Assembly (NCBI GenBank): GCA_000091205.1
Contig: AP006483.2
DNA length: 64,000 bases
Source of the DNA: Cyanidioschyzon merolae
Lineage: Eukaryota
Direction: 5' to 3' (one strand)
In this document: positions 5,553 through 63,975 of the stretch, one piece after another
Numbering within the stretch: the stretch's first letter is position 1
Layout: every line of letters starts with the position of its first letter
Made by a program: the position numbers and the translations under genes
Notes under the pieces: model-generated
What the model was told of the DNA's origin: nothing
The model's database searches: none
The model's input: the letters and a program-made list of their open reading frames with translations, nothing else

Positions 5553-6099
5553 AACCTGCTCGGCAGCGTTGCCGCTCAGCGTGTTCCGCTCTGTTCCGCG
5601 TTATTTCCGGAACCTTACGCAAGGTCTTGAGTGCTGGGTTCCACGGAGACACACACACACACACACCGGTTCGCAAGCCTTGCACGCTCCACTGAAAGCA
5701 ACCTTGTCCGCGCCACGACAAGCTCACCCGCTTTTCCACCTGCAATAAGTGCACTGGAGCTCCTCAGGAAGCTCAGGTTCCTGGAATTTTACTCGTACAA
5801 ACGAGTTTCTTACGATCCGCGTTGACTCGTTCCGTTGGCGTCGCACGAGCACTAGTGCCAGCTCGCAAAGCAAAACACCCCTGACCGGAATGACGACACT
5901 CGGGCGCCACTGGCCTGTCTCCAGCAAGCTTCGCAAGAAGCCACTGACCACAGACTGATAAAGTGCGTTAACGAAAACTTACCTCGACGGAAGCAGGCAC
6001 CGCTAAGGGAGTAAAGAGCGCGTTCCTCCGAGCTACAAAGGCAGCTCACTGGTGTCGACGTCGAAACCCGTACAAAAACTCCAGTATCTAACCAGTAGG

Positions 6100-8600
6100 T
6101 TCTGCAACTGCTTCCCTGCGCACAAGTCGGCGCGATAGAGCACGCCACACCGATCGCCTGCTTATCGATGCACCGACGTGCACAAGTCTCCCAGTCTTTT
6201 TGACCGGCTCCCTGTTACCGGTTTCAACTTGTTCTTCTACGTTTCTACCTTGAGAGGCTGACCGACAAAGTTGTCTCTCGTCAGTTCCAGGAGTCTCTTC
6301 TCCAGCACGGCATAGCTCTTTATATTGATAGAAGCACTAAAGTCTCGGTTCACGCACTCCAGGCGTTTCTCGTCGCCGCTTGTACTCACCAGTGCAGGGA
6401 GTCCTCGAACCTGTGCCCTGCTTTCCATTTCCTGCCCTTCCGTCACCGCTCCGTACTTTTGGATATCCCCAGGGCTCCTTTGGCACTTTTCCATCTCAAC
6501 CCTCTGAAGTGTACACCCTAGCTCGTGATGAATGGATGACGTTCCGAACGCATTTATCAGTATCGAAACGAAAAGGTGTGCGCAGTCCTTGTACGCTCGT
6601 GTCGACGGAGCTGGTATACAACCTTTTGTGGACGCCCAGCGTCCTGATCCGTATGCTAATACGAGCATTTTACGCTTGTCCTCCTTGAGGGCCCTCAACT
6701 CATTGAAGAACTTGTCAAATGCACGCTGCTTTCCTCTGTGCAGACGCATATGCAGACGAGCCCATCTGGTCTTGGTGTACTGTTGCCACAGCGCCTCCCA
6801 ATGAGCAGTACAAACTTTCATGAATTCCAGAAAAGCCTCAAAGTCCGCTCCTCGGCTAGTCACCTCGCTCAAAGCTTCCAGGTGCTCTTTCACTCCTCGA
6901 TTCTATTCCTTAATTTTTTCCTCGCGTTCATTTTTCCGGATTCTCGATCGTATCTTGCTCTCGAGAAATTTAAAAGACACATGTCTTCTGACGTAAGCTG
7001 CCGTCAGTGCCATCTTCCGCACGCTTGGGTGCTGCGATGGTCATGATATTCGTGTCCCCAGGGTCCGCGCCAACGACATTGTCGTTCTCCTGGACCTCCT
7101 GCATCACAGGATCCGCCTCGTATATATGTTCATGTTTCGTCGCGGGCGAAGCCGGGGACGGAACTGGACGATCTACCTTCAAGCACTTATAATCTACAAA
7201 TATGGCTACTCCATCACTTTTGATCATCCCAGGGAATAACTTTTGCTTGCTCACTTTGAGGCGTTCGAAATCGAACATATTCTTCCAGTACGTCTCCCGG
7301 TTTTCACCGGAGAACTCGAAATTCCTTACATCGAACTCTGGACTGATCTCCTTCATGATGCCATGAAGGACGCTCGAGTCGATTGCCACAATATCTGACT
7401 TGACGGTGCACAACGGAGCGACATGGAAGCGCTTACCCATTAGGGCAGCCTCCCGTCTCTCCGACTCTTCATTTTTTCCCCACTCAGCTTCATCTCTGCC
7501 TTGCGTTCGAGTTCTCGGTCCAAAAACACAAAATACCGTAGAATGAGGCGATAGTATCTTTCCGTATCCTTTTTCAACTCTGATATCTTTTCTACTGGAT
7601 TCGCTAGCCCCAGTACCGCACGACGCTCTTGAATAGACGCACGGATTCCAGAAGCTTCATTCCTTCTCATGTGTGATGTCTTCTTGTCTACGGATTCGAT
7701 CCTCTGTTCATTCTCCCTATCGTTCGTGATGCCATCGATGGTGACCCATCTCGCCCTGTGAGGCAGGGCCGCCTATAATGCAAACGCGGTGCGTATCATG
7801 AAACGTTCGAGGTTCATAGTCATATCGCTCATCAGGTACGTGGGGTACTTCATCGCTCCGTAGGTGCGAATTCGCCAGTCTCCCCTCTATCGAGTACCGT
7901 TGAGGCGGTATTCGGCGTACTTTTTGTGCAGTATACACACTCGCGCATTTTTCGTCGACATATCCCAGGTGCTTACCATCCGGTAGCGTATAACGGTCTC
8001 GTTGAAAAATTCCTCCGGAACCTCGACTTTTTTGGTGTCCGTCACGTTGTTGTATATCTCTTTTACCAAATGCACTAGTACTGGAAAAGCCTTTACAATA
8101 CTCAAGGAGTACGACTCGACACGGTTTCCGATGGCCTCTCGCAACTTCTGCTTGTACGGATCCTTGATACATCCAAGAAAACGAGCTTTCACTACCATCT
8201 CGTCGTACTGTCGTCTTTGATGCAGGCATAGACGTCTGGGATCCTGTCTCAGCTTCTTGGACGTGTCTTGTTCCTCTTTGCTCGGCACTGTTCTCCGTTT
8301 TCTTCCGGCAGCCGGTGACACCAGGCCTCCAGGATCCTCTACTTCCTTCTCCACAACTTGCCTTTTTTCTATAATTTTAGATTGAATGCTCTTTGAACGC
8401 CTCTGCTGTAAACAGTGTAAAATCACTTGAATTCACTAACTTGAGGGTCGAAGCATAAGTGAACTGAAAACTATACTTTGTTATGACTTGAATGTAAATA
8501 CAAGTTGTGCGTTAGACACCAAGTCAACGAATGATCAGGATCGCATATCCCTTCAATGCCGAGATGCTCGTCGCGTCTGATGCCTCCAAGATGCGGAAAT
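6100..8600 (-). mobile_element. Fanzor/TnpB-like element, copy A (degenerate; interior of window)
   Basis: Homologous at DNA and protein level to the elements at 54.5-57.4 kb and 60.6-63.1 kb. It shares the conserved 5'-flank block (8460-8520, ...gaactgaaaactatactttgttatgacttgaatgtaaatacaag...) and the conserved block just 3' of the stop (6150-6236, ...gacgtgcacaagtctcccagtctttttgaccggctcc...). Boundaries are approximate, taken from where inter-copy similarity fades. Confidence 0.6.
6237..8426 (-). pseudogene. TnpB/Fanzor-like RuvC nuclease ORF broken into at least 5 frame fragments (7887-8426, 7717-8229, 7440-7670, 6970-7440, 6237-6893)
   Basis: Fragment 6970-7440 ends in the RuvC-I-like motif VVGADPGDTNIMTIAAP. 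Fragment 6237-6893 carries ...HELGC..EKC...C followed by the RuvC-III-like VNRDFSASINI. The expected RuvC-II YEFRTS motif reads INAFGTS here (acidic residue lost). Frameshifts occur at about 7440 and about 7890, with a gap at 6894-6969. Confidence 0.6.
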
Positions 8601-9404
8601 GCGCTAACCGACCGGACTATATAGAGCAAAGAACAGAAACGAACCATTAAATAGCAACGAGATGGCAATTTCTTTCCCCTCTACGGTAAACGTTAGAAAA
8701 TGGCAAACGCTTTCCGTATAATCGAATGTCTACAGGTGGCATGTCCCGCGTGCCGGACGAGTCTGCAGGGCTAATGCTTCGTGCTCGCCCCAGTGGCAGA
8801 TGCTTTATTGAGACCTGCGCAACTCGTCCGAAACGCTGCTTATTCTGGGACTAGGAGCGGCTAGCTTGCATCTGGGCATCGCGCTTGTCTCAGCGGACTC
8901 CTCGTGTATTCCTTCGCGCTGCCGCATGCAGTAGATCTGTCTGAACAGATTCCAAGCCCCCAGAATAATAATGAATCGCGACCCGGTATCGCGCTAGCCA
9001 CGCCTCGAGCCAACGTCATCACTCGCATGGTAAAAACGATCTATCTCCGTGATGCTTGTGCTCCAGCGGCATAGGCGCTCCTGCAGGTACAGCACGACAG
9101 GCACTCGGCGCTCGATCGAACGCACAAAACGAATTGTATATCCGAAAAGAAGTATAGGTCATGCAACTTGGAGAAAGGATGCAGCAGCACGATGTACGCC
9201 TCCTCGAAAGCCAATATCCATCCAATCCGCAACCTGAAATCCAAGGTCAACGGACACTTTTCAGCCATCGACAGAATTCCCGCTGCGCTACGCCGCGCGT
9301 ACCCGCAGGCTGCGCGCAGGCGCCCCGTTTCCAATCGATTCGAGCGTTTTCAAACGCAGTGCTCCGTATAGGCACGAGTTCCAGCGCCAAAAGTGCGTGA
9401 TAGA

Positions 9405-42600: not shown

Positions 42601-43135
42601 CCCTCGGGGCAAACGTATGCGCCCAGACTGAGAGCTCTCGCGACGTCCGCACCTCACGTCAGGATTCGGAGCCGGTTCAGCTCGGATCGACGCGCCAGCA
42701 CAATGCCAAAAAGTTCTGTCTGCACAGGTTTAGGCCACAACATTGAAAGTACAACGCATTTCAGTTCGTTGCAGTGCAGTTTCGAAGACAACAAGGCGTG
42801 CCTGCGGTAGTCCCAGTGGAGTCATACGCTGCGAACTTGCCACTGCGGGGAAACCGCACCATATGACCATTGCGCAGCAGTGGTGCTCTCGGCGAAGCGT
42901 TCACGGGAAACTTGCTGGAGTCGGGGTCTCGGAACACTTCCAGGAAGCCTGCTGAACAAGCGACTCACCCTCGATCTATACCAGGGAAGCAGCCTAGGCG
43001 AACCGCTGTGTCCGACACACACACACACGTAAAGACTGGCAAAGGTTGTTCCGGAGCTCGTGTCTTCGCAGTCGTACAAACGGCTCGCGCCGTCGAACGA
43101 GGCTTCCAAGAAAGCGCGTACGCAGCTGTTCCGCA

Positions 43136-46100
43136 ATGCCGCTTCCGTCAGCACAGACGCGTCGCTTTATTAAAAGAGCAAGAGGTGCTGGTGCCACTGG
43201 GCAGGCCTCGGTGCTCCGCGTCTCCCGGGAGCACTACTTGCGGAGTGATCTACCGCTGCCTCCGGAGCCAGCCCTGCGGCCGTTTCTCTTGGTACCCGAC
43301 ACGAACGTAGTGCTGCGTGCAGCGAGCCTTTTCGAACTCGATGCCGTCCAGGAGGTTGTCTTTTTGCAGACCGTGCTGCAGGAGACCCGCAAACAAAGTC
43401 CAGAGACCTACGATCGCATACGGCGACTGTTAGCTTCCCCGGAAGCGAAGCGCCGACACCTCTACCTCTTCAGCAATGAACACTGTGCAGCAACGTTCTC
43501 GGAGCCACTAAAGGGTGAGTCACCAAACGACTACTACGACCGGCTGATTCGCAAGTCTGTGGCGTGGTTGAATACTCAGTACAACGCACTGCAGGGGCCG
43601 CGAGTGGTGCTCCTCACCGAGGATCGCGAGAACGCTCGTCGAGCCAGAGACGATGATCATCTGGTTACCTTCAGCCTCGCGCAAGTGGATGCATGGTGTG
43701 CGGGCGCTGCAGACACGCGAGTTAGGGACCTAGTGGCAGACTCTGGCGGTCACCATGATGCAGCACTGAACGAAAGCGCTTCGGAAAAAGCGCATGCAGC
43801 ACCTGCGTCCAGGACGGAGTCTGCGCCCTACCCGGAGTACTGGCCAGTCGACAAGGTTGAACGCGCGCTCGCCAGTGGTAAACTGTTCCGTGGCGTATTT
43901 CGTGCAACCATGTATGAGCCGTTGGAGAGCGGTGTAGTGGTCATTCGGTCGCCAGCGGGAAATGCGGAGCCCCAGAAGACACAGGTCGCCACACAAGTGC
44001 AGCCAGCGCTGCGCATTCGGGTCCAGGGCGCTGCCGCCGTGAATCGTAGCGTTGACGGAGACCTCGTCGCTGTGCTACCACTGGACGGCGTTGTCGACGG
44101 AGCAGCCAGTGCTGGTCGAAATGCGATACCGACCATCGACGCAGACGCCTTCAGTAGCGTGACAGAGCAGGTGGTGACAGCTGCCTCTGCACTGGGATCC
44201 GAGTCCTCGGATCCGCTGGCTTCGACGCCTTCCCAGGGGCCTCGTCTTGGGAAGATTGTTGCAGTGCTTGAGCGCCGTTGGCGTGCGCAGTACTGTGGAT
44301 CGCTGCAGGCCAAATACACCGCAGATACATTGAGTTTCCAAGGTCGCAGACGACACCTCTTTTTGCCGGTGGATCGGCGGATACCCCCGATCCTACTGGA
44401 GACACTGCAGGCAGCGTCTCTCTACGGCAAGCGGGTGGCTGTTGCTCTTGATCGCTGGGATACCCAATCGCGTTTCCCGGTTGGTCATGTGGTCAGCGTG
44501 CTGGGGCGCATTGGCGATGAGCAAGTCGAAACGCAGGTTTTGCTTCTGGAGAACGGCATTGTGACCCGACCGTTTTCGGAGGCGGCGCTAGCGTGTCTGC
44601 CTCCACCAGACTTTTCCGTTGCGCCTGCCCCGATGGATACCACGCTGGTTGGTCGCCTCGATTTGCGGTCTATGTTTGTTTTCAGTATCGACCCACCGGG
44701 GTGCACCGACATCGACGATGCGTTGCACTGCCGCCTCGTGGATCGGAGCAATGGACAGGGAGCAAATGCGAGAGCGTCGACTCGCCTTCAAGTTGGCGTG
44801 CATATCGCTGATGTGGCGAGCTTCGTTCGAGCAGGGACAGCACTCGATGAAGAGGCACGGGAGCGTGGCTGCACTGTCTACCTGGTGGACCAGCGCATCG
44901 AGATGCTGCCGGCGCTGCTAACGAGCAACCTGTGCTCGCTGGTTGCGGGCAAGGATCGGTATGCGTTCTCGGTTCTCTTCGAGTTGGACGTTGAATCTGC
45001 CCAGATTAACGATGTCCAGTTTACACGCAGCATGATTAGGTCACGAGCATCGTTGACCTACGAACAGGCTCAGTTGATGCTGGATGCATTGGTTGTCGAC
45101 AAACAGAGCGCGAAGCAACTGGGGATACCGCCCGAGCTAGGCGAAGCGCTGCCGCTTCTAGCCCGCGTTGCAGGAAGACTGCGGGCTGAACGACTCGCCA
45201 ATGGTGCGCTCATTCTCGCGTCACCGGAGATCCGTTTCGAGCGAGCGGATGGTGAGAGCCCGAGTCCCAGCGTTGGTTCAGGCTCCAGTTGTCGCAGTTT
45301 TGACACGCACCACCTCGTCGAGGAGTTTATGCTGCTCGCAAATGTGACGGTAGCTAAGCGCATTGTGCACCAGTTTCCGCACTCGGCGTGCTTGCGCCGA
45401 CATCCTCCGCCGAGTGTCGAGCAGTTTGAGCCACTGGTACGGGCGGCAGCAGCATACGGAATCGAGATGCACGTGGATTCGTCCAAGGCGCTTGCGGCAA
45501 GTCTCGACGCCGTCTCAACGACCTCAGCTGGCCAAGAGGACCCACTGCTGGAAGAGCTGTTTCGGATGCTTGCAACTCGTTGCATGATGCAGGCTGCATA
45601 CTGCTCCGCTGGCTCGGCTCCTGCGTCATCCTACTACCACTACGGACTCGCAGTGCCGCTGTATACCCATTTCACGTCACCGATACGGCGCTATGCCGAC
45701 ATTATTGTACATCGCCAATTGGCAGCAAGCTTGGGGTATGAGGATGCTCCTGGTGAGTTGCTCATGAATGAGCAAGTCGAACGTATCTGTGAACACGTGA
45801 ACGAACGCTATCGCAATGCACAGGCCGCAGGACGAGCGAGTTCTGCGCTCCATGTGTTGCTCTGGTTCCATCGGCAATGCCAACGCCCAGCTCATGAAGC
45901 ACGCGATACGGCCTCGATGCTAGAGACAGACGGCCGAATTCTGCGATTCTTGTCGACTGGATTTGTGGCGTACCTGCCCAAGTTTGGTATTGAGGGCGTC
46001 GTTCGCGTAGACGGTGCAGAGACCTCCTGGGTATTGAGCCCTGATTCGCAAACGATCCTCCATAAGGACTCGGGAGTGACGTACCGTATTTTGGGCGCTT

Positions 46101-46282
46101 GTCGTATTCGAATTGTTATTGATGAAAATGCTGTCGGTGCCGATCGTATTCGATTCGAGCTGCTTCCTAGGAACGCCAACAACGCCGTTCAAAGTCGAAC
46201 GACGTCGGGCGTGTGCAGTAGTGGCGGCAACCGCGCCCAAGACGAAACGTCTCCTACTGACGTACAGATGCCACCAAAATAA
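43136..46282 (+). CDS. DIS3: Exosome catalytic subunit DIS3/RRP44 (PIN plus RNB exoribonuclease)
   Basis: 1049 aa from ATG 43136; the track start is a TTG. The N-terminus (VLRVSREHYLRSDLP ... LLVPDTNVVL) matches the Rrp44 PIN region. The RNB catalytic motif FSIDPPGCTDIDDALHC is present, plus RNase II-family C-terminal S1-like sequence. Confidence 0.85.
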   Translation: MPLPSAQTRRFIKRARGAGATGQASVLRVSREHYLRSDLPLPPEPALRPFLLVPDTNVVLRAASLFELDAVQEVVFLQTVLQETRKQSPETYDRIRRLLASPEAKRRHLYLFSNEHCAATFSEPLKGESPNDYYDRLIRKSVAWLNTQYNALQGPRVVLLTEDRENARRARDDDHLVTFSLAQVDAWCAGAADTRVRDLVADSGGHHDAALNESASEKAHAAPASRTESAPYPEYWPVDKVERALASGKLFRGVFRATMYEPLESGVVVIRSPAGNAEPQKTQVATQVQPALRIRVQGAAAVNRSVDGDLVAVLPLDGVVDGAASAGRNAIPTIDADAFSSVTEQVVTAASALGSESSDPLASTPSQGPRLGKIVAVLERRWRAQYCGSLQAKYTADTLSFQGRRRHLFLPVDRRIPPILLETLQAASLYGKRVAVALDRWDTQSRFPVGHVVSVLGRIGDEQVETQVLLLENGIVTRPFSEAALACLPPPDFSVAPAPMDTTLVGRLDLRSMFVFSIDPPGCTDIDDALHCRLVDRSNGQGANARASTRLQVGVHIADVASFVRAGTALDEEARERGCTVYLVDQRIEMLPALLTSNLCSLVAGKDRYAFSVLFELDVESAQINDVQFTRSMIRSRASLTYEQAQLMLDALVVDKQSAKQLGIPPELGEALPLLARVAGRLRAERLANGALILASPEIRFERADGESPSPSVGSGSSCRSFDTHHLVEEFMLLANVTVAKRIVHQFPHSACLRRHPPPSVEQFEPLVRAAAAYGIEMHVDSSKALAASLDAVSTTSAGQEDPLLEELFRMLATRCMMQAAYCSAGSAPASSYYHYGLAVPLYTHFTSPIRRYADIIVHRQLAASLGYEDAPGELLMNEQVERICEHVNERYRNAQAAGRASSALHVLLWFHRQCQRPAHEARDTASMLETDGRILRFLSTGFVAYLPKFGIEGVVRVDGAETSWVLSPDSQTILHKDSGVTYRILGACRIRIVIDENAVGADRIRFELLPRNANNAVQSRTTSGVCSSGGNRAQDETSPTDVQMPPK

Positions 46283-46760
46283 CATACCATCGGAGGAAAT
46301 TCCCTTATACCTCCCCTGCGGTATTCCTCGGCGAGCTACGTCGAAGCTCATCTACGATCGTTGTGATCTCTAAGCGCAGCGCTGCGGAACCCTTGGCACT
46401 ATGTACCGGCGAAGTTGTTGTTCGAAATGGTCAGAGATCTGCCTAGTTTCTGAAAAGGCATTGAGCGCTTGTGCTAGTTGCGCTGAACGCTAGACAATCT
46501 ACGGGAGATTTAGCTCGGACTCTGGACAATTGACGGGCGGTCACTCGTGCCGCTACGCAAAAGAGGTTTTTGACTGGATACGCACACTTACGCGATCGAT
46601 TCTAGCCGATGACGTGATCGGCAGCTTTCGCACCGGAGACGTCCTAACCCAAGAAAGTACAAGGCATGTTTGTCTCTGATCCGCTGTACCAGGGCTAAAG
46701 AGTAGTTCGCTCACCTGCTGTAAGTAGAGCACCGTTTCCGCTGGGTACCGCACGTGACGG

Positions 46761-53391: not shown

Positions 53392-54614
53392 GAAGCAGCG
53401 ACATCTTGAGCTCCACGGACTGCGTTGGCGGACGTGTCAACTGTTAATTTGCTCACAGTCTAGATCACGTCTATGCTGATACTCTGTTGCGACAATATTC
53501 CACTCATGTTCACAAGACCCGAGAGTACGAATGAACGAATGCGTTAATGCGGATAAATGTGCGCGGAGTGTCATCTGAGGTCCTCTTCGGGGACTGACAT
53601 TCAGAGATCAGATGAACAGAAAGAATGGACCAGAATTTGCTTTTGGAACGTAAAGGAATGATTACCTCTGCCTATGAGCTTGCCCCCGATGATAGCCTTG
53701 GTGGTAATGGCGGTATATTGGTACCCTTTCTTCTCTTTGTAGTCAGAATACGGTTTCCGAGTTGCATGTAGCGAGTGTGTCTGCAGTAGGGCGTCTGGAA
53801 CTGTTTTTTTAGTTTCGTTGTACTTGAGCACATTCTAGTCCTGAGGAGCGGTTCTGGAGCAAGTTTGACTCGATCCGTACAACCGCAAATTTCACCAAAA
53901 TCCGATTCCTCTTGAGGAAAAGCTAATATTCGTGACGCCTGCATACGGGCTCCGGCTCCGCTTGGCACGAATGGAAGCAGGGCCGCCAGCCTCACAGCGC
54001 ACTTATAGCTTGTTCTGTCGGTCGAGGCATCGTCTCGATATATTCACCACTGTTGCCTACCGTTGCTCGTAGGCTACGTCAATAAAACCGTCTGAAGTGT
54101 TGTGCTGATTTCCGGATTATGTTTATGTCTTGTACACTAGAAAAAAAACGAGAACGAAGTGGTGGTAAGCCGTGAAGACGTAGATGCGCAGTTACCGTTA
54201 CTCGGTCCAGAGGCACACCATGCCAGGCAGTCACATCCTGGGACGAGCTGTACGCTATGTAAGCATTAGCACAGCACCTTGAGCACAGCTGGAGGCATTC
54301 TAGAAGCGGCCAGTATCGATTCTAAACAATTGATCTTGTTCTATATCATTGCAAACAAATTGGTAAACGGATCCGTTGCTAATAAATGGACACAGGGCCC
54401 TCGGAAGATAGATAAACGACAAGGCAGCTGATGATGTATCGAATACAGAAGAACTCGAGTTGCCCATTTTCCACATTTTCTGTCACATCAGTCCTGTTAC
54501 AGCCATGGCAGCGATATCTTCACGAAAAGCATCAACTATTACCACATATACTCTAGGTACTCTTCGCAAATACGGTCTGAATAAGCGACGTAACGCGCCC
54601 GCACCGAACGCTTC

Positions 54615-56943
54615 TCAAACGACGAACGTCGCCGCCGGCCGTGTACGGTAGTGGAGGGAAAACCGCGCCTTGGACAAATCGTCTCCAACTGATGTGCAGA
54701 CGCCCCCCGCCTTTCTCGACGAGCCACCCACTACTGCTTCCAACTTCTTCTCATATAGTTCGACTTTGAGAGGTTGTCCAATAAAATCCTCTTGTGTCCA
54801 CTCTGGAGGTCGTTTCTCCAGCACCGCACATCTCCGTATATTGATAGCGGCATGAAAATCTCGGTTCACGAACTCCATACATTTCGTGCCGTTGGGAGCT
54901 GTACTCACCAATACGAGTAACCCTTGAACTTTCGCCTTCCTTTCCATTTGCTCCTCCGCCAGCGGTCCGTACTTTTGCAATTTCCTCAGCGCTCTTCTGG
55001 CACTTTTCCATCTCCACCCTCTGAAGCGTGCAGCCCAGTTCTTGGTATGTATAGGACGTCCGGAACTCATATACAGGTATCGTAACGAGACGCCGGGCGC
55101 ACTCCTTGTACAGCTTCGTCGCTGGAGCTGGCGTAGTTCCTTTTCTGTTCTTCCAGCGCCCTGCTCCATACGCTTCTACGAGCCTCTGACGGTCATCCCC
55201 CTCAAAGGCGCTCAACTGATTGAAAAAATTCGCAAACGCCCGCTGCTTCACACCGTATAGATTCATTCGCAGACGAGCCCACCGGGGCTTTCTATACTCC
55301 TCCCACAGCGCATCCCAATGGGCAACACGAAATTCCATGAATTTCCGAAAAGCTTCATGGACCGCTCCGCGGCTCGTCGCCTCGCTCAAAGCTTCCAGGT
55401 GATGCTTTATTCCTGCATTCCACGTAACGATTATCATCCTTGCATTCACTACAACGGATTCTCGATAGTATCTCGCTCTCGAGAATCTCAGCAGACGCAT
55501 GTCTTTCTGGCGTAAATTACCGTCCATGCCATCTTCCGCACGCTTCGGTGCTGCGATGGTGATGATATTCGTGTTCCCAGGATCCGCGCCAACCACAATG
55601 TCTTTATCCTGCACTTCCTGTGTGGCAGGATCCGCCTCTTTCTTTCCTTGATGCTTCGTCGCGTCAACCATAAAGTCGTTATCCTGCACATTCTGTTCGG
55701 CAGGATCCGCCTCCTTCTGACCTTCATCCTTCACCGCGCCAACGACACGGTCGTTATCCTGCACTTTCTGCATCACAGGTTCCGCCTCTTTCTCTTTTTC
55801 ATCCTTCACCGCGTCAGCGACAAAGTCGTCATCCTGCACCTCCTGTGTCGCAGGATCCGCTTCTTTGATTTTTTAATGCTTCGCAGAGGGCGAAGCGAAA
55901 GGCACAATCGGACGGTCCACTTTCAAGCGCCGATAGTGTACATACAAGGTTACTCCATCGGTCTCGATCAACGCAGTGAATACCTTTTGGCTTCTCACTT
56001 TGAGCCGTTTGAAATTGTAGATGTTCTTCAAGTACGTCGCCCGGTTTTCACCGGTGAAGTCATCCCTGCTAACAGTGAACACTGGACTGATCTCCTTCAT
56101 GATGCCGTAAAACACGTCCGAATCGATATTCACGAAATGTGACTTGATGCTGCACATTGGAACCACGTTGAAGCGCTTACCCATTAGGACAGCCTTCCGT
56201 CTCTCCCAATCTTCTTTTTTTTCTTCACTCAGCTTCATCTCCGCATTTCGCTCGAGTTCTCGGTCCAGAAACACGAAATAGCGCAGAATAAGACGATAGT
56301 ATCTTTCCTTATCTTTTTTCAACTCTGATGTCTTGTATGTTGGATTCGCCGGCCCCAAGATTGCACGGTGCTCTTGTATAACCGAATGGATTACAGAAGT
56401 ATCATTCGTGCTGTCGTTAAACGCCTTCGTGTCGACGAATTCGACATCACCTTCATGCTTGCGATCGTTCTTGATGCCATTGATAATCACCTATACTCCT
56501 TTGCGAGAGACGCCCGGGTAAAGTGCAAACACGGCGCGTATCATGAAACGTTCTAGGTTCATTGTCAAATGGTTCGTCAGGTTCGTGAGGTTCTTCATCT
56601 CCCCATAGTCGTAAATACTCCGGTCCCCCTTGTATCGAGTACCCTCGAAGCCGTAAAAGGGATGTTTTTCGTGGAGGGCATGAACCCGCTCGTTTTCCTC
56701 CCGCGCTTCCACTGTTGCAAGCATCAGGTATCGAATAAAGGTCTCGTCGAATAACTCGTCCAGAATCTCGACCGTTTCCATGTACGTCACGTCGCGATAC
56801 ATATCCCTCGCAAAATGCATCAGCCCTGACCATGCCTTGATAATACTCTTGGAGTACGAGTCGACACGTTTTTCGATAGCGTCTCGCAAATTTTCCCTGT
56901 AAGGATGCTTGATATGATTAAGAAGACAGGCTTTCACCATCAT
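54615..56943 (-). pseudogene. TnpB/Fanzor-like RuvC nuclease, about 770 codons: one in-frame TAG (56491-56493) and at least two frameshifts (fragments 56491-56943, 55873-56490, 54751-55839, 54615-55169)
   Basis: RuvC-I motif VVGADPGNTNIITIAAP (Asp codon 55582-55584). RuvC-II-like VYEFRTSYTYQELGC...EKC. RuvC-III-like CMEFVNRDFHAAINI (Asp codon 54858-54860). The long N-terminal region is homologous to copy A. The protein end GQPLKVELYEK is conserved in all copies. Confidence 0.65.
55579..55875. repeat. 75-bp tandem repeat (about 3.5 units) inside Fanzor-like copy B, encoding 25-aa acidic repeats (QDNDxVVGAVKDEGQKEADPAEQNV)
   Basis: The units atcctgcac(t/a)t(c/t)ctg...caggatccgcctc(t/c)tt... 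begin at 55606, 55681, 55756 and 55831. Copy A has a single unit at the homologous position. Confidence 0.85.
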
Positions 56944-58416
56944 CTCATTCTACAGTCATCTTTCCCGCCGCCTTCGACCTAGGGCCTCCCGCTTTCGGTT
57001 CTTCTTCTTTTCCTGTTCTTCTGGACTCGGCTCTGTTTTTTGTTTTTATTTCTGGCAGCAGGCGACACTGGGCCTCCGGGATCGTCGACTTGCTTTTTCA
57101 TAGCTTTTCTTTTCATTTTTTTGTGTGAAAAAGAACGCTCTTTGAACCCTTCTATTATATACTGCGAGAAATCAATTGAATATGTTTACTTGAGGGTTGA
57201 GACACAATCGAACTGGAAACTATGATTTGTTACGACTTCCACGCAAATACAGCTTGCCCGTTAGAACATCAAGAAAACGTGTCGTCACGGTCGCGTTTCT
57301 CTTCGAAGGCGACAGATGCGTCGTGTCTCGCAAGTGCCATACTTGGAGATGCACGTATCGAGCGCGCCATACAGGAAAAAGGACAGTGACCTACGATTTA
57401 CAAGAAACGATATAAAATTTTTTCCCGCTCTACGATAAGCGTTTAAGGGGAAATAGATCGCCGTTCTATCGGAAGCTTATGTTCGAGGCGGAAGGTCCCG
57501 CGAGCCGGTCGAGTCTACCGGGCTAGAGCTCGGTATCCCTCTTAAGTGGCTGCTGCCGCTGCTGCTGCAAGACCTGCGTAGCTCGTTCGCAACGCATTTT
57601 ATCCTGAGACTATGCACAGGATGCTGCGTTGGGCCTCGCCCTGGTCGCAGTGGAACCCTAGTACAGCACTTCGCGCTGACGCAGGTAGTACGTCTTTCTG
57701 CGCACTTTGCATGTTCCCAGAATGACAAATAGCCCTGATTCCGTTTCAAGTGAATCATTCCTCGAGCGGACGCCCTTAGTGGTATGGCAAAGCCGTTCTG
57801 TCTCTGTACAGCACCTGCTTGAGCGGTATAAGCGCTACAGCGGGTGCTCACAACAGGCTCGGCGCTCGATAGAACATACGAAACGACCAGTATATCAGAG
57901 AGGTAGTATGGATAATGGGACTTGAGGACAGGTGCACTATGATCGAGATATCCCCGGAAGCCATCGTGCGTTCCGAATTCTGGGATGCATGGGCAATGCA
58001 AACGTTCTTTCATCGAAAAGAAAAAAACGCTCCGGAGGCGGACTCGTCATCGAGACGCGCATCGCTCTGGATCGAATCTCCGGAAGGCGCTTCTGGGCGA
58101 TCGCGAAAGCGCTCAAGCGCATCTTTGTGTCCTCAACGGATAGCATGATTTATTCGGGGCGCTCAGTCTCGAGCGTTCCCTCTGACTTAAAGCAATAGCT
58201 TCGTGGATCCTACAGCTGTGTTGTCAAAGAGCACTGTACCTAGTTTTGGCGAGGCCTATAGTGCTGGAGAACAAAACGATCACGGGTTTGTAGCGATCTC
58301 GGCACCAGTGCTGGAAACAACCCTGCACTGGAGCTCGGGCGATCTGAAACCTGTAGTCGGACTTTTTCGAGGATCTGTCTCGCAAGGAAACAAATCGTGG
58401 AACTGTGCTCTTTGGA

Positions 58417-59481
58417 ATGACGTCGGGGATCGACGAGGCAGCGGCTGAGCTTCAGGGAAGTCTCTTTGGGGAGGTCTCGCCTGCGATCGACTCGCCGGGT
58501 GCGGCGCTTGCACGTTCGTACCCGGTCCGCATCACCGTGGTTGGAGCTGGTGACGTTGGCGTTGCTTGCGCCTATAATATTTTGACCCGAGATATTTGTA
58601 GTGAGCTGGTACTGGTGGACGTTCTCAAGGACAAACTCAAGGGTCAAGTTATGGACTTGCAGCATGGAGGTGCGTTCTACAGCACCCGCATCCGGGCTGC
58701 CGAGTCCTACGAGGATACAGCACATTCGGCAGTATGTATTATAACGGCAGGTGTGCGTCAGCGGCCCGGAGAAAGTCGTCTTGAGCTCATGGATCGCAAT
58801 GCCGCATTGTTCAAAGGCATTATTCCGCCCCTGGTGCAGTATTCGCCGAACACAATCCTGTTGGTTGTGAGTAACCCCGTTGATCTATTGACACATCTAG
58901 CGTGGCAGATGAGTGGCTTGCCCCGCGAACGTGTGATTGGCTCAGGGACATATTTGGACTCTTCGCGTTTCCGCACACTTCTGGCGCAGCGGCTGGGCAT
59001 CGATACCGCTTCTGTCCAGGCCATGGTACTGGGCGAGCACGGAGACTCCTCGTTCGTGTACCGGAGTGGTATTACGGTTGGTGGCGTGCCGTTGCGAACA
59101 TGCTTCGAGCGCATGACCGACGCTGCGAGCGCGTCCACAGCATTCTATGATCTGGTGAAAGGTGTCCATCAGCAAGTTGTAGCCGCGGCTTACGAGGTCA
59201 TTAAGCTGAAAGGCTACACCAACTGGGCCATTGGCAGCGCTGTTGGAAGCATCGTTACAACGATTGTGCATGATCGGCGCAAAGTGCTGCCAATAACGAC
59301 GCATGCGGGCTCGTTGCGAGGCCTCGAGTCGGCGGATGTATTCTTGTCGTTGCCTTGTGTGCTAGGTCGGAATGGTGTCGTTGAAGTACTACAAATACTG
59401 CCGTTCATGGAAAGTGACGAGAAAGAAGACCTCCAATCCAGTATAGAGGCACTCCAGAGCACGCCGAAGAAAGCATCTTGA
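58417..59481 (+). CDS. LDH: L-lactate dehydrogenase
   Basis: 354 aa from ATG 58417; the track start is a GTG. RITVVGAGDVGVACAYNIL...LVDV..DKLKGQVMDLQHGGAF...ITAGVRQRPGESRLEL...VVSNPVDLLT...RVIGSGTYLDSSRFR...LGEHGDSS match the LDH nucleotide-binding, substrate and catalytic-His motifs. Confidence 0.85.
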   Translation: MTSGIDEAAAELQGSLFGEVSPAIDSPGAALARSYPVRITVVGAGDVGVACAYNILTRDICSELVLVDVLKDKLKGQVMDLQHGGAFYSTRIRAAESYEDTAHSAVCIITAGVRQRPGESRLELMDRNAALFKGIIPPLVQYSPNTILLVVSNPVDLLTHLAWQMSGLPRERVIGSGTYLDSSRFRTLLAQRLGIDTASVQAMVLGEHGDSSFVYRSGITVGGVPLRTCFERMTDAASASTAFYDLVKGVHQQVVAAAYEVIKLKGYTNWAIGSAVGSIVTTIVHDRRKVLPITTHAGSLRGLESADVFLSLPCVLGRNGVVEVLQILPFMESDEKEDLQSSIEALQSTPKKAS

Positions 59482-60589: not shown

Positions 60590-63060
60590 TCTGAGGCCGA
60601 AACGTCTCGGACGACCTCCGCACCCGACGACGACAACAAACACCTTTCAAAACAAAAACGTTGCTGCTGGCAGTGTACAGTACTGGCGAGAAACTCGCCC
60701 TAGACCAAAAGTCTCCAGCTGACGTGCAGACGCCTCCCCGTCTTTTTCGACCGGCCACCTACTGCGGGTACCCTTGTTTCTCATACAGTTCCAGTTTAAG
60801 AGGTTGTCCAACAATGTTCTTTCGTGTCGACGCTGGGAGTCTTTTGTCTATTCCCGCACATCTCCGTAGATTGATTCCAGCGTTAAAGACTCGGTTCGCG
60901 AACTCCATACGTTTCTTGCCGATGGTAGTCGTAATTAGTAATGCAAATAGTCCACGAGCTTCTCCCCTCCTTTCCATTTCCTCTCCCGTCAGCTGTCCCT
61001 TACTTTTTTATATCATGAGGACTCCGCTGGCACTTTTCCATCTCCACCCTCTGAAGAGTACATCCCAACTCATGGTGTGTATACGATGTTCGGAACTCAC
61101 CTACAGGTATCGTAGAGAAACACAGTGCGCATTCTTTGTACATTCCTGCCGTTGGAGCTGGTGGAGTCCCTTTTTTTCGGAGCCCAGCTCTCTACTCCAT
61201 ATATAACAACGAGCCTCTGACTTGATCCTCTTTCAAGGCGTTCAACCCATTGAAAAAGTTCGCGAATGCGTGATGCTTACCACAGCACGGATTCATACGC
61301 AAACGACCCCAGCGGGGCTTTGTATACTTGCCCTACAGCGCCACGGAATGAGCAACACGAACTTCCATGAAATTCAGAAAAGCTTGAATGTCCGCTCATC
61401 GGCTCGTCACCATGCTCAAAGCCTCCAGGTGATCCTTCATTGCTACATTCCACGTAACGATCTTCTTCCTTGCATTCATTACACCGGATTCTCGATAGTA
61501 TCTCTCTCTCGAAAACCTCAAAAGACGCATATATTTCTGATGCAAGGTGCCTTCGGTGCAATCTTCCCCGAGCTTGTGAACAGCGATGGTTCTGATATTC
61601 GTGCTCCAGGGACTAAGGCCGACGCCAAAGTGGTTTTCATGGGGCTTATACGTTCCATAGCCCGTAAACCTGTGTTCGTTCTTCGGCAACGCCCGTAACG
61701 AAGACGGGATAGGACGAGCTGCCTTCAACCGCTGATGGTGTACACATATGTGCGCCACATCGAGATCGATTGTTCCAGTGAATAACCTTTTTTTGGCCGG
61801 TTCGGGACGCTTGAAATCGAAGATATTCTTCTCGTAGGCGTCCCGATCTTCACCGGAGACCTATTTGTTGATTACATCGAGCTCTGGACAAATCTCTATC
61901 GTGAAGTCGTGAAGTACTACGGAGTGGTTACTCACAAAATGTGACTTGAACGCGCATAACCGACCGACATTGAAGCGCATCTGGAGAAGACTTCAATGTC
62001 GTTTCTCCCACTCGTCATTTTTTCCTCACTCAGCCCCATGTCGGCTCTGCGGTCGAGGTCTCGGACAGAAAACATGAACCAGGGCAGGATGAGAGAGTAA
62101 CAACTCTCTCCGTCGTTTCTCATATCCGAGAGTTTTCTCTTGGGTTGACATGACCCAAGACCGAACGATGTTTTAGAATAGTGGCGCGAATTACAGGAGC
62201 ATCATTCATTATCCTGCGTGATGTCCTCTTGTCGACGAGTCTGATCTCCTGTTCATGCTGGCGATCGTTCTTCATACCATCGATGATTGCAAGCATCGCT
62301 TCGCGAAATATGCCCGGGTACAGCACAAAGGCGACGCGTATCATGAAACAATCGAGGTTTGCCATTCTATGGTTCCTCATATTCGTGAGGCACCTCTTTG
62401 CCCTGTATTCGTAAATGTCTGCGTCACCCTTGTGTGCAGTACCACTGAGGCGGTATTTGGCCTTATTTTTAAGGAAGGCATGCACTCGCTCACTTATCCC
62501 CGATGTTTTCCCATTAAAAACAATCAGGTAGTTGATGAAAGTCTTTTGGAAAATTTCTTCCGGAAACATCACTTTTGCGATGTGCGTTACGTCCCGATGC
62601 AGGTCGCTGTCCAAATGCCAACGTCCTAAAGAAAAGCTCCAAACATACCCGGCCTACGATCCGCCACGGTTTCTGATAGCGTCTCGCAACAATCAGTCGT
62701 ACGGATCATTGATATGTTGGAGAAGATAAGATTCCACCACCATCTTGTCGTACAGAAGTCACAATTTCGGCCTTCGATGTAAGGCCCCCCATGTTGCTTC
62801 TTCTTCTTTTCCTGACCCTCTTCGCTAGGCAATATGTCTCATTTCATTCTGACATCCGGCAGCACCGGCCACCCCAAACCCACTACATCATACTACATAA
62901 GTGTCAGATTTTTTGGGAGAACATCTCATTGGACGCTTCTGCTTTGAACGGCGAGAATCTGGTGAATAGAGTTACTTTAAGATTGGAACGCCACTGAAGC
63001 CAAAACTATACTTTGCTACGATTCGATCGCAAATACAAGTGGCCCCGATAGAGCAGTCGC
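60590..63060 (-). mobile_element. Fanzor/TnpB-like element, copy C (most degraded; 1-3.4 kb from telomere)
   Basis: ORF fragments 62120-62614, 61932-62123, 61396-61758 and 60759-60977 are homologous in order to copy B (...ESCYSLILPWFMFSVRDLDRRADMGLSEEKM..., ...STNIRTIAVHKLGEDCTEGTLHQKYMRLLRFSRERYYRESGVMNARKKIVTWN..., ...MEFANRVFNAGINL...NIVGQPLKLELYEKQ). The conserved 5' block lies at 62990-63050 and the conserved 3' block at 60600-60758. Confidence 0.6.
60759..62614 (-). pseudogene. TnpB/Fanzor-like nuclease remnant (RuvC-I Asp lost: STNIRTIA; RuvC-III reads NRVFNAGINL, Asp lost)
   Basis: See the element feature above. There are multiple frame breaks and gaps between fragments, and the catalytic Asp residues of motifs I and III are substituted. 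Confidence 0.55.
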
Positions 63061-63975
63061 TCCAGTAGAGGTCATTACCGCGTTTTTCTTGATCGGAGAG
63101 GCGCACGTTGGGTGACGTGACGGCCAGATTTCGCGATGCGTTACCAGGACGCACGACAGAGAAAATGCAAAAAAATTAACCAATATGCACAAACAGGATA
63201 GCAAGTACTATTGCAACCTAGTATAAACGTAAAGAAGATGATTTCGCGTATGGTCAAAGTGTTACATTTAATCGGGAGGTCTGCGTGCCGCGAGACTACC
63301 GGCCTGCCCTCCGTGTGACTTTCAGTGGAGAGTGATATGAGACACTTGGGCAACTCATCCAAAACGCAATTAATTTCGGGACTAGGAGCAGGCATGCTGC
63401 GTCTGAGCACTAACACCGTCGCGGTGAACAGATAGTACGCCGTTTTACGCTACCGCATGCAAATCGTCTGCAAGATCCGCTTGGAGGCTCCAAAGAAAAT
63501 AAATCTCCCTGATCCCATGTAGCATGAACCAAGCCCCTTCCAACGCGCCCAGTGGTATGTCAGAGCTGCCCTGCTTCCGGAGTGCACCCACAGCGGCGAT
63601 AGAGAGGCTACAACGGGTGCTCAAGGTAGGTAAACGGCGCACGATAGAAAGTCAGATACAATCAGTACAGCCGAGATTAGGTAAATGCGACAAAAAGTAC
63701 CGAAATTGTTCAGCGTGACGAAGGATTTTCCGAAACAAGTATCAATCCGGCAATCTCGGCGTCTGGTCAGTAGAACAGGCTCTGTCGAAACAAACCAAAG
63801 CAAAGCGCTGGAAGGAGATCCATAAGGGCACTGGTGTGCTGGATGTAGATAAGAAAGATGCGTATTTGCTCAGATCGTACCGCCGGAAAAATACCCGAAC
63901 GAACCTGGATTGGTAGACATCGCTCTGACAGATGCTTTTTCTCTGAGAACACCGCAGTAATGGGGCATTGCGTCG

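Follow-up and report, generated by a model that had tools for sequence, protein, structure and literature searches.

A stretch of 64,000 nucleotides from chromosome 1 of Cyanidioschyzon merolae 10D (contig AP006483.2; here called the window) carries three copies of a repeat with a Fanzor-like gene, and the sequence at the 3' end of that gene raises the question of what is being kept there: the scaffold of an omega-RNA, an end of the transposon, both of these, or sequence that the copies share for no particular reason. An original prediction placed a conserved non-coding block at 54520–54760, immediately 3' of the Fanzor-like stop in all three copies, and proposed that it encodes an omega-RNA scaffold or forms the right end, read in the sense direction with the adjoining flank as the guide.

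All three full copies are on the minus strand: copy A (ca. 6076–9277), copy B (ca. 54602–58030) and copy C (ca. 60634–63720), each ca. 3.1–3.4 kb long. The short motif quoted in the original prediction does occur in all of them, once per copy, at 6175 (A), 54691 (B) and 60721 (C). In-frame stops or frameshifts are found in every copy. The Fanzor1 pseudogene of copy B (54745–57116, minus strand) is interrupted by two in-frame stops and one frameshift but keeps its GADPG, EFRTS and NRDFHAAINI motifs, while copy A has lost the RuvC glutamate and reads NAFGTS at that point. Upstream of the pseudogene, copy B has a 5' non-coding region (57117–58030, minus strand), the outer ca. 700 bp of which are a TE-N2_CMe-like module (PMC3627910).

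The protein was correctly recognized as Fanzor-like. When a profile of 23 relatives was run against the PDB, its only matches were structures of Fanzor1 proteins: PpFz1 (9CF0, E=4e-17), SpuFz1 (8GKH, E=2.7e-12) and GtFz1 (9CER, E=1.5e-6). The D/E/D motifs of the RuvC domain, which are GADPG, DEFRTS and NRDFNAAINI in the family consensus, align with those of PpFz1 and SpuFz1. A phmmer search of the PDB with the single consensus protein gave no match, nor did Pfam (local library) with the consensus protein or the ORF pieces from the window. As to the C4 zinc-finger (TNB) domain between RuvC-II and RuvC-III, PF07282 was matched by 5 of the 23 relatives (best 4.8e-6); the C. merolae family shows only HH…C…C (THHELGC…EKC). 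The nearest relatives of the family protein ride in Tc1/mariner (DDE_3) elements. The 5' region was searched for remnants of a DDE_3 transposase, with no significant match (best E=3.5), and no transposase gene, TnpA-type or other, was found inside the element.

The repeat belongs to CMe-1A, a Fanzor1 family, and was assigned to it by the family's published description. CMe-1A has about 150 copies of ca. 3 kb, whose identity to their consensus is ca. 80%; there are no terminal inverted repeats or determinable target-site duplications, and a 5' module is common to it and TE-N2_CMe (Bao & Jurka 2013, PMC3627910). The repeat in the window has the same host, identified as C. merolae 10D through exact protein matches, a length of 3.1–3.4 kb and no inverted repeats that could be found, and the 5' module of ca. 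700 bp is present in some copies of the family and absent from others. CMe-1A/TE-N2_CMe and the elements studied here are the same, the three window copies being members (PMC3627910). Metagenomes yielded at least 467 confirmed related loci; among the 80 loci that were fetched, none has a fully intact ORF.

The conserved block is shorter than had been predicted. Conservation was found at 54602–54749 on the minus strand of copy B, but the remainder, 54520–54601, is unrelated flank: its information content is ca. 0, and its identity in the three-way alignment of A, B and C is 46–48% (unrelated flank elsewhere in the alignment, 23–41%). A covariance model (R1) was built from copies of the family and run on the window. 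R1 matched the block of copy B with 115.8 bits (E=3.9e-23) and that of copy C (60634–60780, minus strand) with 115 bits (E=5.9e-23), both well outside what chance would give. In copy A only a strongly decayed remnant is left (6076–6233, minus strand), with a marginal match of 17 bits (E=0.074); it is recognizable over its first ca. 75 nt only, and past the family stop position it is 42% identical to B and C. A fourth instance of the block was found at 46176–46272 (minus strand; R1 match 46176–46305, 45.8 bits, E=4.5e-8). This is a solo right-end fragment of ca. 97 nt, truncated at its 5' end and without a Fanzor gene, which runs from the loop of the P2 hairpin described below to the terminus.

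That the block is conserved as well as or better than the coding sequence is borne out for copies B and C (73% against 68% nucleotide identity), but not for copy A compared with B or C (51–53% against 67–73%). Within the window the block has decayed as fast as the rest of the element, and faster in copy A. The step from such conservation to function is a weak one in transposons, because their copies share all sequence by descent.

The right end itself could be placed by aligning the copies, as had been suggested, and it is a sharp boundary, at ca. 54602 in copy B. Conservation is high for ca. 175 nt beyond the …LYEKK of the protein and then collapses. Among 60 distinct loci, information content drops to ca. 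0 within 2–7 nt after the end of the model, and the flanks are mutually unrelated from there on; similarity ends no more than 2–7 nt from a terminal hairpin, and this hairpin marks the right end. Dozens of independent loci carry the block, and their flanks differ. In copy B the flank directly beyond the right end (54582–54601, minus strand), where information content is again ca. 0, is the candidate source of a guide and, by analogy with known Fanzor systems, would be read as one if the RNA is made.

At the left end, the 5' boundary differs between subfamilies, and a small palindrome, GCGCTCGGTGAGCGC, is found close to the 5' limit of the core that carries Fanzor in copies without the TE-N2-like 5' module. 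No conserved upstream motif or candidate TAM, the short motif that Fanzor requires next to its target, emerged from the left-end flanks. A left-end hairpin resembling the one at the right end was considered and rejected, the candidates being weak and inconsistent (−2 to −9 kcal/mol). Classification as a hairpin-ended element of the IS200/IS605 kind, which would have subterminal hairpins at either end and a Y1 HUH transposase, was rejected as well – of the two hairpins only that of the right end is clear, and there is no transposase gene.

The block does not lie immediately 3' of the stop in the three copies. Copies A and C have premature stops, and copy B has an open frame as far as 54615. In the family, the ORF enters the block for ca. 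29 codons (ca. 87 nt) and encodes a C-terminal tail that ends in …LYEKKLEAVVGGRSKKTGRRLHVSWRRFV followed by the stop, a conserved TAG/TAA inside GTCTAGG. Translation of 62 distinct copies found exactly this stop in 22 of them and a stop no more than five codons away from it in a further 13. By alignment to copy B, the in-frame tail (LEAVVGGRSKK..RRFV* in the family) corresponds to 54670–54744 on the minus strand, and the family stop position, 54670–54672, is CAA in that copy. The objection that the block is an in-frame coding extension therefore applies to more than half of it, which is coding tail in the family consensus, but not to the remainder, a truly non-coding part of ca. 65–70 nt.

Diversity at the three codon positions of the tail is 0.188, 0.146 and 0.236, a weak periodicity. 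The value at the third position does not fall below that of the upstream ORF (0.241), and there is no signal of extra constraint at these sites. Relatives with 40–56% protein identity (L083–L092) also have clear ends, …GAGTATA; their ORF ends ca. 23 codons earlier, yet ca. 180–200 nt separate the stop from the end of the element.

Helices were proposed from minimum-free-energy folds of individual metagenomic copies and then tested separately. P1 is formed by a 5' arm inside the coding tail (GCAGTAGTGGGTGGC, 54723–54737 in copy B, minus strand) and a 3' arm at 54645–54657 (minus strand), which reads CCCTCCACTACCGT in copy B and CGCCACTACTGT in the family and is the best-conserved non-coding stretch; 84% of cells are paired. 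P2 (helix 4; 54676–54704, minus strand) is a hairpin of GGCGTCT, the loop GCACRTCAGTTGG and AGACGNNNN, with 83% of cells paired. Its 13-nt loop is conserved (diversity 0.197), and the hairpin includes the motif from which the prediction started. P3 (54602–54634, minus strand) is a terminal hairpin together with the G/T-rich right-end terminus …GCGTTCGGTG. The hairpin is predicted in almost all copies, and the mean dG of the region is −18.6, compared with −12.6 for the control flank. An extension of P3, in which the linker would pair with the G/T-rich terminus, was seen in some copies and was dropped as not general. A CGCC segment has two competing alternative pairings.

Individual metagenomic copies fold far better than shuffled sequences (z = −5.9, −4.1, −2.3, −2.3 and −4.2); copies B and C of the window fold no better than theirs (z = +0.95 for B, +0.02 for C). 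The sense strand is the more stable in 40 of 42 copies, with a minimum free energy of −57.3 kcal/mol against −42.4 kcal/mol for the antisense strand, and 18% of the predicted pairs are G·U. A search of Rfam with copy B and one well-preserved copy found no family. The folds of L083–L092 are not obviously like those of the family, and a common "stem + ACUGKA" motif is an impression only.

Covariation is concentrated in the terminal hairpin and is thin outside it. RNAalifold on a plain MAFFT alignment gave essentially no structure (−0.46 kcal/mol). In the same, unbiased alignment there was a modest excess of pairs that had changed on both sides, 16 compared with 9.1 expected, and 4 of 500 shuffles reached 16. 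In a model-based alignment, which had been made to fit the proposed structure, paired cells make up 81.9%, and 52 cells have changed on both sides compared with 23.7 in shuffles (none of 500 reached this number), though the copies are related and statistical tests over them are for that reason not independent. Nine of the ten P3 pairs have changes on both sides in this fitted alignment. The terminal hairpin is kept in several sequence forms – CGTTCGA/TCGAACG, CGTTTTTC/GAAAGACG, CGTTCTA/TAGAACG and GGCGAGCACGCGC/GCGCGTGCTCGCC – and copy C has a second ("type 2") form, CGTTTTTG…GAAAGGTG. P1 and P2 are nearly invariant and are supported by conservation and energy, not by compensatory change. The pattern across copies is one of conserved stem arms and hypervariable loops: diversity is 0.124 in the 3' arm of P1 and 0.53 in the adjacent loop, with four-fold degenerate sites at 0.282.

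The block is the 3'-terminal module of CMe-1A and, by analogy with characterized Fanzor1 elements, probably an omega-RNA scaffold merged with the right end of the transposon, with the flank as guide. The boundary, the folds, the strand asymmetry and the terminal hairpin argue for this reading, which is in substance that of the original prediction; the thin covariation and the decayed state of the window copies count against it. In active members, a sense transcript would take in ca. 90 nt at the end of the Fanzor1 ORF plus the ca. 65–70 nt from there to the right end. The scaffold RNA would start near GCAGTAGTGG and continue past …TGGTG into flanking DNA. The predicted scaffold of ca. 150 nt would have four parts: the long-range stem P1 (GCAGUAGUGG/CCACUACUGU), an inner hairpin P2 of 7–9 bp with the conserved 13-nt loop, a small hairpin with a variable loop, and the long terminal hairpin P3. 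Once transcribed and processed, the omega-RNA would bind Fanzor1, and its 3' end, taken from the flank, would direct the cleavage of DNA as in SpuFz1, GtFz1 and TnpB. The same DNA also sets the right end of the transposon.

The block could instead be a cis-acting DNA end and nothing else – a subterminal hairpin and terminus recognized by a transposase, as in IS200/IS605 elements or Helitrons, with no role as RNA. Such an end would suit a family without terminal inverted repeats or determinable target-site duplications (PMC3627910), and the strong hairpin right at the end is the part that co-varies best; solo end fragments exist, and the small palindrome GCGCTCGGTGAGCGC could be taken in the same sense. 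We nevertheless consider a DNA end alone unlikely. The ca. 150 nt that are conserved far exceed what an end site needs, the G·U pairs and an antisense fold that is ca. 15 kcal/mol worse favor a sense-strand RNA over a DNA hairpin, and the idea of a left-end hairpin failed. In all characterized Fanzor1 and TnpB elements, moreover, the omega-RNA sits at the 3' end of the ORF and includes the right end (PMC10432273, PMC11423790), and the two roles are therefore not exclusive.

Less likely again is ordinary conservation, a coding extension plus shared descent with no selected non-coding function beyond, at most, that of a 3' UTR. Most members do have ca. 87 of the ca. 150 nt in frame up to a conserved stop, with the weak codon periodicity given above; all parts of a transposon are common to its copies whatever their function, and the block of the window copies decays no more slowly than its surroundings. 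What this reading does not predict is non-coding diversity that follows the predicted structure, low in the stem arm and high in the loop relative to four-fold sites, strand-specific folds far more stable than shuffles in the better-preserved copies, or a terminal hairpin maintained through different sequences. Nor does it fit the 40–56% relatives, which stop earlier and still have ca. 180–200 nt to the end of the element. Recent gene conversion or segmental duplication might be suspected between B and C, which lie 6 kb apart in the same orientation, but it is improbable in the extreme as the source of the similarity and can be excluded because these copies are just 68% identical overall. Their divergence (coding sequence 68% identical, block 73%, with A at 51–53% to either in the block), the unrelated flanks and the many independent loci all refute it.

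The omega-RNAs of Fanzor proteins have been experimentally defined for a handful of proteins, and the length and structure of the scaffold vary greatly between species. Fanzor1 omega-RNAs lie in the interval from stop codon to right end or overlap them, with the guide (14–15 nt) beyond (PMC10432273), and total lengths of 75–150 nt are known (PMC11423790). As an omega-RNA scaffold and right end, the CMe-1A block fits as a new example of this known kind, by its likeness to the characterized cases, and not as a new mechanism. Like the omega-RNAs of SpuFz1, GtFz1 and PpFz1 (PMC10432273, PMC11423790), it is a sense-strand module 3' of a Fanzor1 gene that reaches the right end, with variable flank beyond. 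The predicted scaffold of ca. 150 nt falls within the range of known lengths and has several stem-loops, including a stem of ca. 7 bp. It differs from the Fanzor1 omega-RNAs in having no detectable RNA sequence similarity to them and in overlapping a lineage-specific coding tail by ca. 87 nt. The SpuFz1 scaffold spans the 3' inverted repeat of its element, whereas CMe-1A is without inverted repeats.

The family also resembles TnpB elements. In the IS200/IS605 group, for instance in ISDra2, the scaffold of the TnpB omega-RNA (reRNA) overlaps the nuclease gene at its 3' end and includes the subterminal hairpin of the right end, and the guide comes from the adjacent flank, in elements without inverted repeats and target-site duplications. 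CMe-1A differs in being a eukaryotic nuclear element with a Fanzor1-clade protein and no TnpA-type transposase that could be found. It is a doubtful, though conceivable, extension of the comparison that CMe-1A, inside a eukaryotic nucleus, retains a TnpB/IS605-like layout or has come back to one, with no inverted repeats and with a hairpin right end that is the 3' part of a ca. 150-nt omega-RNA overlapping the coding tail, unlike its closest relatives in Tc1/mariner elements.

Bao & Jurka (2013, PMC3627910), writing before omega-RNAs were discovered, described no structured 3' block, exact right end or coding overlap for these elements. The right end of CMe-1A, previously undetermined, is now fixed, and the omega-RNA reading would explain the conserved 3' end of the "non-autonomous" family. 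It also gives a concrete scaffold model for the C. merolae family, with boundaries, stems and guide position, from which work to reconstitute the Fanzor of a moderately thermophilic eukaryote could begin. If the doubtful TnpB/IS605-like reading is true and better-preserved copies elsewhere in C. merolae or in its hot-spring relatives are active, they would provide a natural pair of RNA-guided nuclease and guide from an alga that loves heat and acid and is genetically tractable.

Within the window, the annotation becomes three Fanzor1 elements, all dead, and a single solo end fragment; all four are relics in which nothing is likely to be functional, and the block of copy B is the relic of a candidate omega-RNA scaffold and of the transposon right end. 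The solo fragment at 46176–46272 recalls the "ghost loci" that Saito et al. (2023) described in Spizellomyces punctatus, in which an end/omega-RNA region is found without a Fanzor gene, but it is only a truncated right end of ca. 97 nt and not a miniature element with both ends. If the TnpB/IS605-like reading is true and better-preserved copies are active, solo right-end fragments of this type could act as orphan guide genes.

The window carries a repeat of ~3.1–3.4 kb in three diverged copies, and the conserved block behind the Fanzor1 gene (54602–54749, minus strand) is the 3' end of copy B. By three-copy comparison, the copies lie at about 6076–9277 (A), 54602–58030 (B) and 60634–63720 (C), all on the minus strand, and each is interrupted by in-frame stops or frameshifts. 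ORFs nearby match proteins including BAM78815 and BAM78816 exactly, which places the window on chromosome 1 of Cyanidioschyzon merolae 10D. The family is the Fanzor1 element CMe-1A, described by Bao and Jurka in 2013: about 150 copies of about 3 kb, each ~80% identical to the consensus, without terminal inverted repeats, with target-site duplications undetermined, and with the 5' 635 bp common to TE-N2_CMe (PMC3627910). The block is best read as a decayed putative omega-RNA scaffold plus right-end module of this known transposon family; its chief value is as a model, open to testing, of a Fanzor in a thermo-acidophilic model alga. The original prediction of an omega-RNA scaffold or right end largely holds in kind, but not in its details of extent, coding overlap and copy A.

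That prediction placed the block at 54520–54760, right after the stop codon in all three copies and conserved at or above the level of the coding sequence. Past 54602, identity falls to 46–48%, near the 23–41% that unrelated flanks show at other places in the alignment, so 54520–54601 is outside the feature. The conservation claim is true of B and C (73% identity in the block, 68% in coding sequence) but not of A compared with B/C (51–53% vs. 67–73%). Nor does the block directly follow the stop: the reading frame of copy B is open as far as 54615, and copies A and C have early stops.

A metagenome contig scan confirmed at least 467 related loci; the 80 that were fetched all belong to seven JGI metagenome sample series, which are related to one another, and give about 60 distinct 3' ends. 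Conservation in these copies is high for ~175 nt past …LYEKK and then collapses. In loci anchored by R1, a covariance model of the block, information content is ~0 within 2–7 nt of the model's end, which defines the right end of CMe-1A, previously not determined. A subfamily with a "type 2" terminal hairpin (L032, L040, L046, L056, L067) shares 7–14 extra nt (…GTTTGTTTCCAGGGG) before flank divergence, and its right end is slightly further out than that of the main group.

The block might instead be an in-frame coding extension, and in part it is. Of 62 distinct copies, 22 have an ORF that enters the block by 29 codons and ends at a TAG/TAA conserved within GTCTAGG (family C-terminus …LYEKKLEAVVGGRSKKTGRRLHVSWRRFV*), and 13 more stop within 5 codons of that position. 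Coding tail therefore makes up about 87 nt of the block, and ~65–70 nt are non-coding. Because transposon copies have all sequence in common by descent, raw conservation is weak proof of function, and diversity (pi) was compared between site classes over 46 copies. Pi was 0.119, 0.091 and 0.241 at codon positions 1, 2 and 3, and 0.282 at four-fold degenerate sites. The tail (0.188, 0.146 and 0.236) showed no extra constraint at third positions (0.236 vs. 0.241). Values were 0.124 for non-coding CGCCACTACTGT, 0.53 for the adjoining 7-nt loop, ~0.31 for the linker and terminal hairpin, and 0.6–0.75 for the flank. The non-coding part is thus unevenly constrained – one stem arm is as constrained as coding sequence.

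Folding and covariation analysis of the block had been proposed as checks on the original prediction. Well-preserved copies had fold z-scores of −5.9, −4.1, −2.3, −2.3 and −4.2; window copies B (z = +0.95) and C (z = +0.02) folded no better than shuffles. Pairs recurring across per-sequence folds gave three predicted helices: P1 (GCAGUAGUGG(…)/(…)CCACUACUGU), a long-range pairing of the coding tail with the non-coding part; P2 (GGCGUCU, a 13-nt conserved loop, AGACGYY), which includes the motif originally quoted; and P3, the terminal hairpin. A small GGCG-loop-CGCC hairpin competes with the inner extension of P1. RNAalifold found no structure on the MAFFT alignment, and no Rfam family matches the block. 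Scored on that alignment, P1–P3 were paired in 80.5% of cells (31–52% with slid partners), with modest covariation (16 pairs vs. 9.1 expected; 4 of 500 shuffles reached 16). Realignment of 72 distinct instances with R1, which leans towards the proposed structure, gave 81.9% of cells paired and 52 cells changed on both sides, compared with 23.7 for shuffles, of which 0 of 500 reached 52. Almost all of these cells lie in P3, 9 of whose 10 pairs vary on both sides. Independently of R1, nearly every copy has a hairpin in the 55 nt after CCACTACTGTACAC, built from several different sequences (mean dG −18.6 vs. −12.6 for control flank). For 40 of 42 copies the sense strand gave the more stable fold (−57.3 kcal/mol, compared with −42.4 for antisense), and 18% of pairs were G·U, which fits RNA better than DNA; as the copies are interrelated, the tests are not independent of one another.

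R1 also matched 46176–46305 (minus strand, E = 4.5e-8), a 5'-truncated solo right end (46176–46272) running from the P2 loop to the terminus, ~97 nt, without a Fanzor gene. It is closer to the family consensus than copy A, and similar partial matches occur in metagenomic loci. It lies opposite in strand to an ORF (43046–46282, plus strand) for a Dis3/Rrp44-like exoribonuclease with PIN, RNB and partial S1 domains and covers its last ~35 codons, so this C-terminus may be transposon-derived.

A majority consensus of the copies restores a protein of ~710–750 aa with GADPG, DEFRTS and NRDFNAAINI motifs. Single-sequence searches with the ORF pieces or consensus protein found no match. A profile of 23 relatives (23–40% identity to A5, the longest fetched family member) matched Fanzor1 structures and no others in the PDB, the RuvC motifs aligning – Parasitella PpFz1 (9CF0, E = 4e-17), Spizellomyces SpuFz1 (8GKH, E = 2.7e-12) and Guillardia GtFz1 (9CER, E = 1.5e-6) – and 5 of the 23 matched the TnpB/Cas12f TNB domain PF07282, which together support Fanzor1 membership. 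Where a C4 zinc finger is expected between RuvC-II and RuvC-III, the C. merolae branch reads HH…C…C (consensus around THHELGC…EKC; about 54990–55060 in copy B). The finger looks degenerate and the zinc site may be altered or lost; some distant relatives still match PF07282. Just upstream of RuvC-I, a 75-nt (25-aa) tandem repeat (55584–55866, minus strand, in copy B; …KHEEKKEADPATQEVQDNDxVVDA…) is a variable linker, with about 1 unit in copy A, 3–4 in B and 4–5 in the metagenomic proteins P0001 and P0011.

Some Fanzors have an RNA that overlaps the gene (PMC10432273). Fanzor1 omega-RNAs measure 75–150 nt, and beyond a first stem-loop of 7 bp they vary (PMC11423790). The block is like these in its position, strand and size and in having a variable flank, but has no sequence similarity to them. 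In relatives at 40–56% protein identity (L083–L092, on lower-GC contigs), Fanzor1 is directly downstream of a DDE_3 (Tc1/mariner) transposase gene in the same orientation. These elements end …GAGTATA, 180–200 nt past their stop, and identical elements at different sites all finish …CATGAGTATA. A transposase is absent from the C. merolae element, as is any detectable remnant of DDE_3; the family lost, or never had, this partner.

Copies B and C run in the same direction, 6030 bp apart, and their flanks are unrelated; a malate/lactate dehydrogenase gene (58405–59481, plus strand) sits between them. The TE-N2_CMe-like module, the 5' ~700 bp (57330–58030 in copy B), is missing from many metagenomic copies (L003, L005, L006, L043, L048), so CMe-1A looks like a composite of a TE-N2 module and a Fanzor core. 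In copies without the module, homology begins at a small palindrome, GCGCTCGGTGAGCGC, which lies ~40 nt upstream of GAGACACGACGC and has a relic in copy B at about 57347–57369. The left end of copy B (57995–58030, minus strand; GCGTTTTTTTCTTTTCGATGAAAGAACGTTTGC) is similar to the right-end hairpin of type 2, AACGTTTTTCTTTTGAAAGACGTTTG; a left-end hairpin is weak or absent in other copies, and the likeness could reflect chance, a solo end that abuts the element, or terminal repeats in direct orientation.
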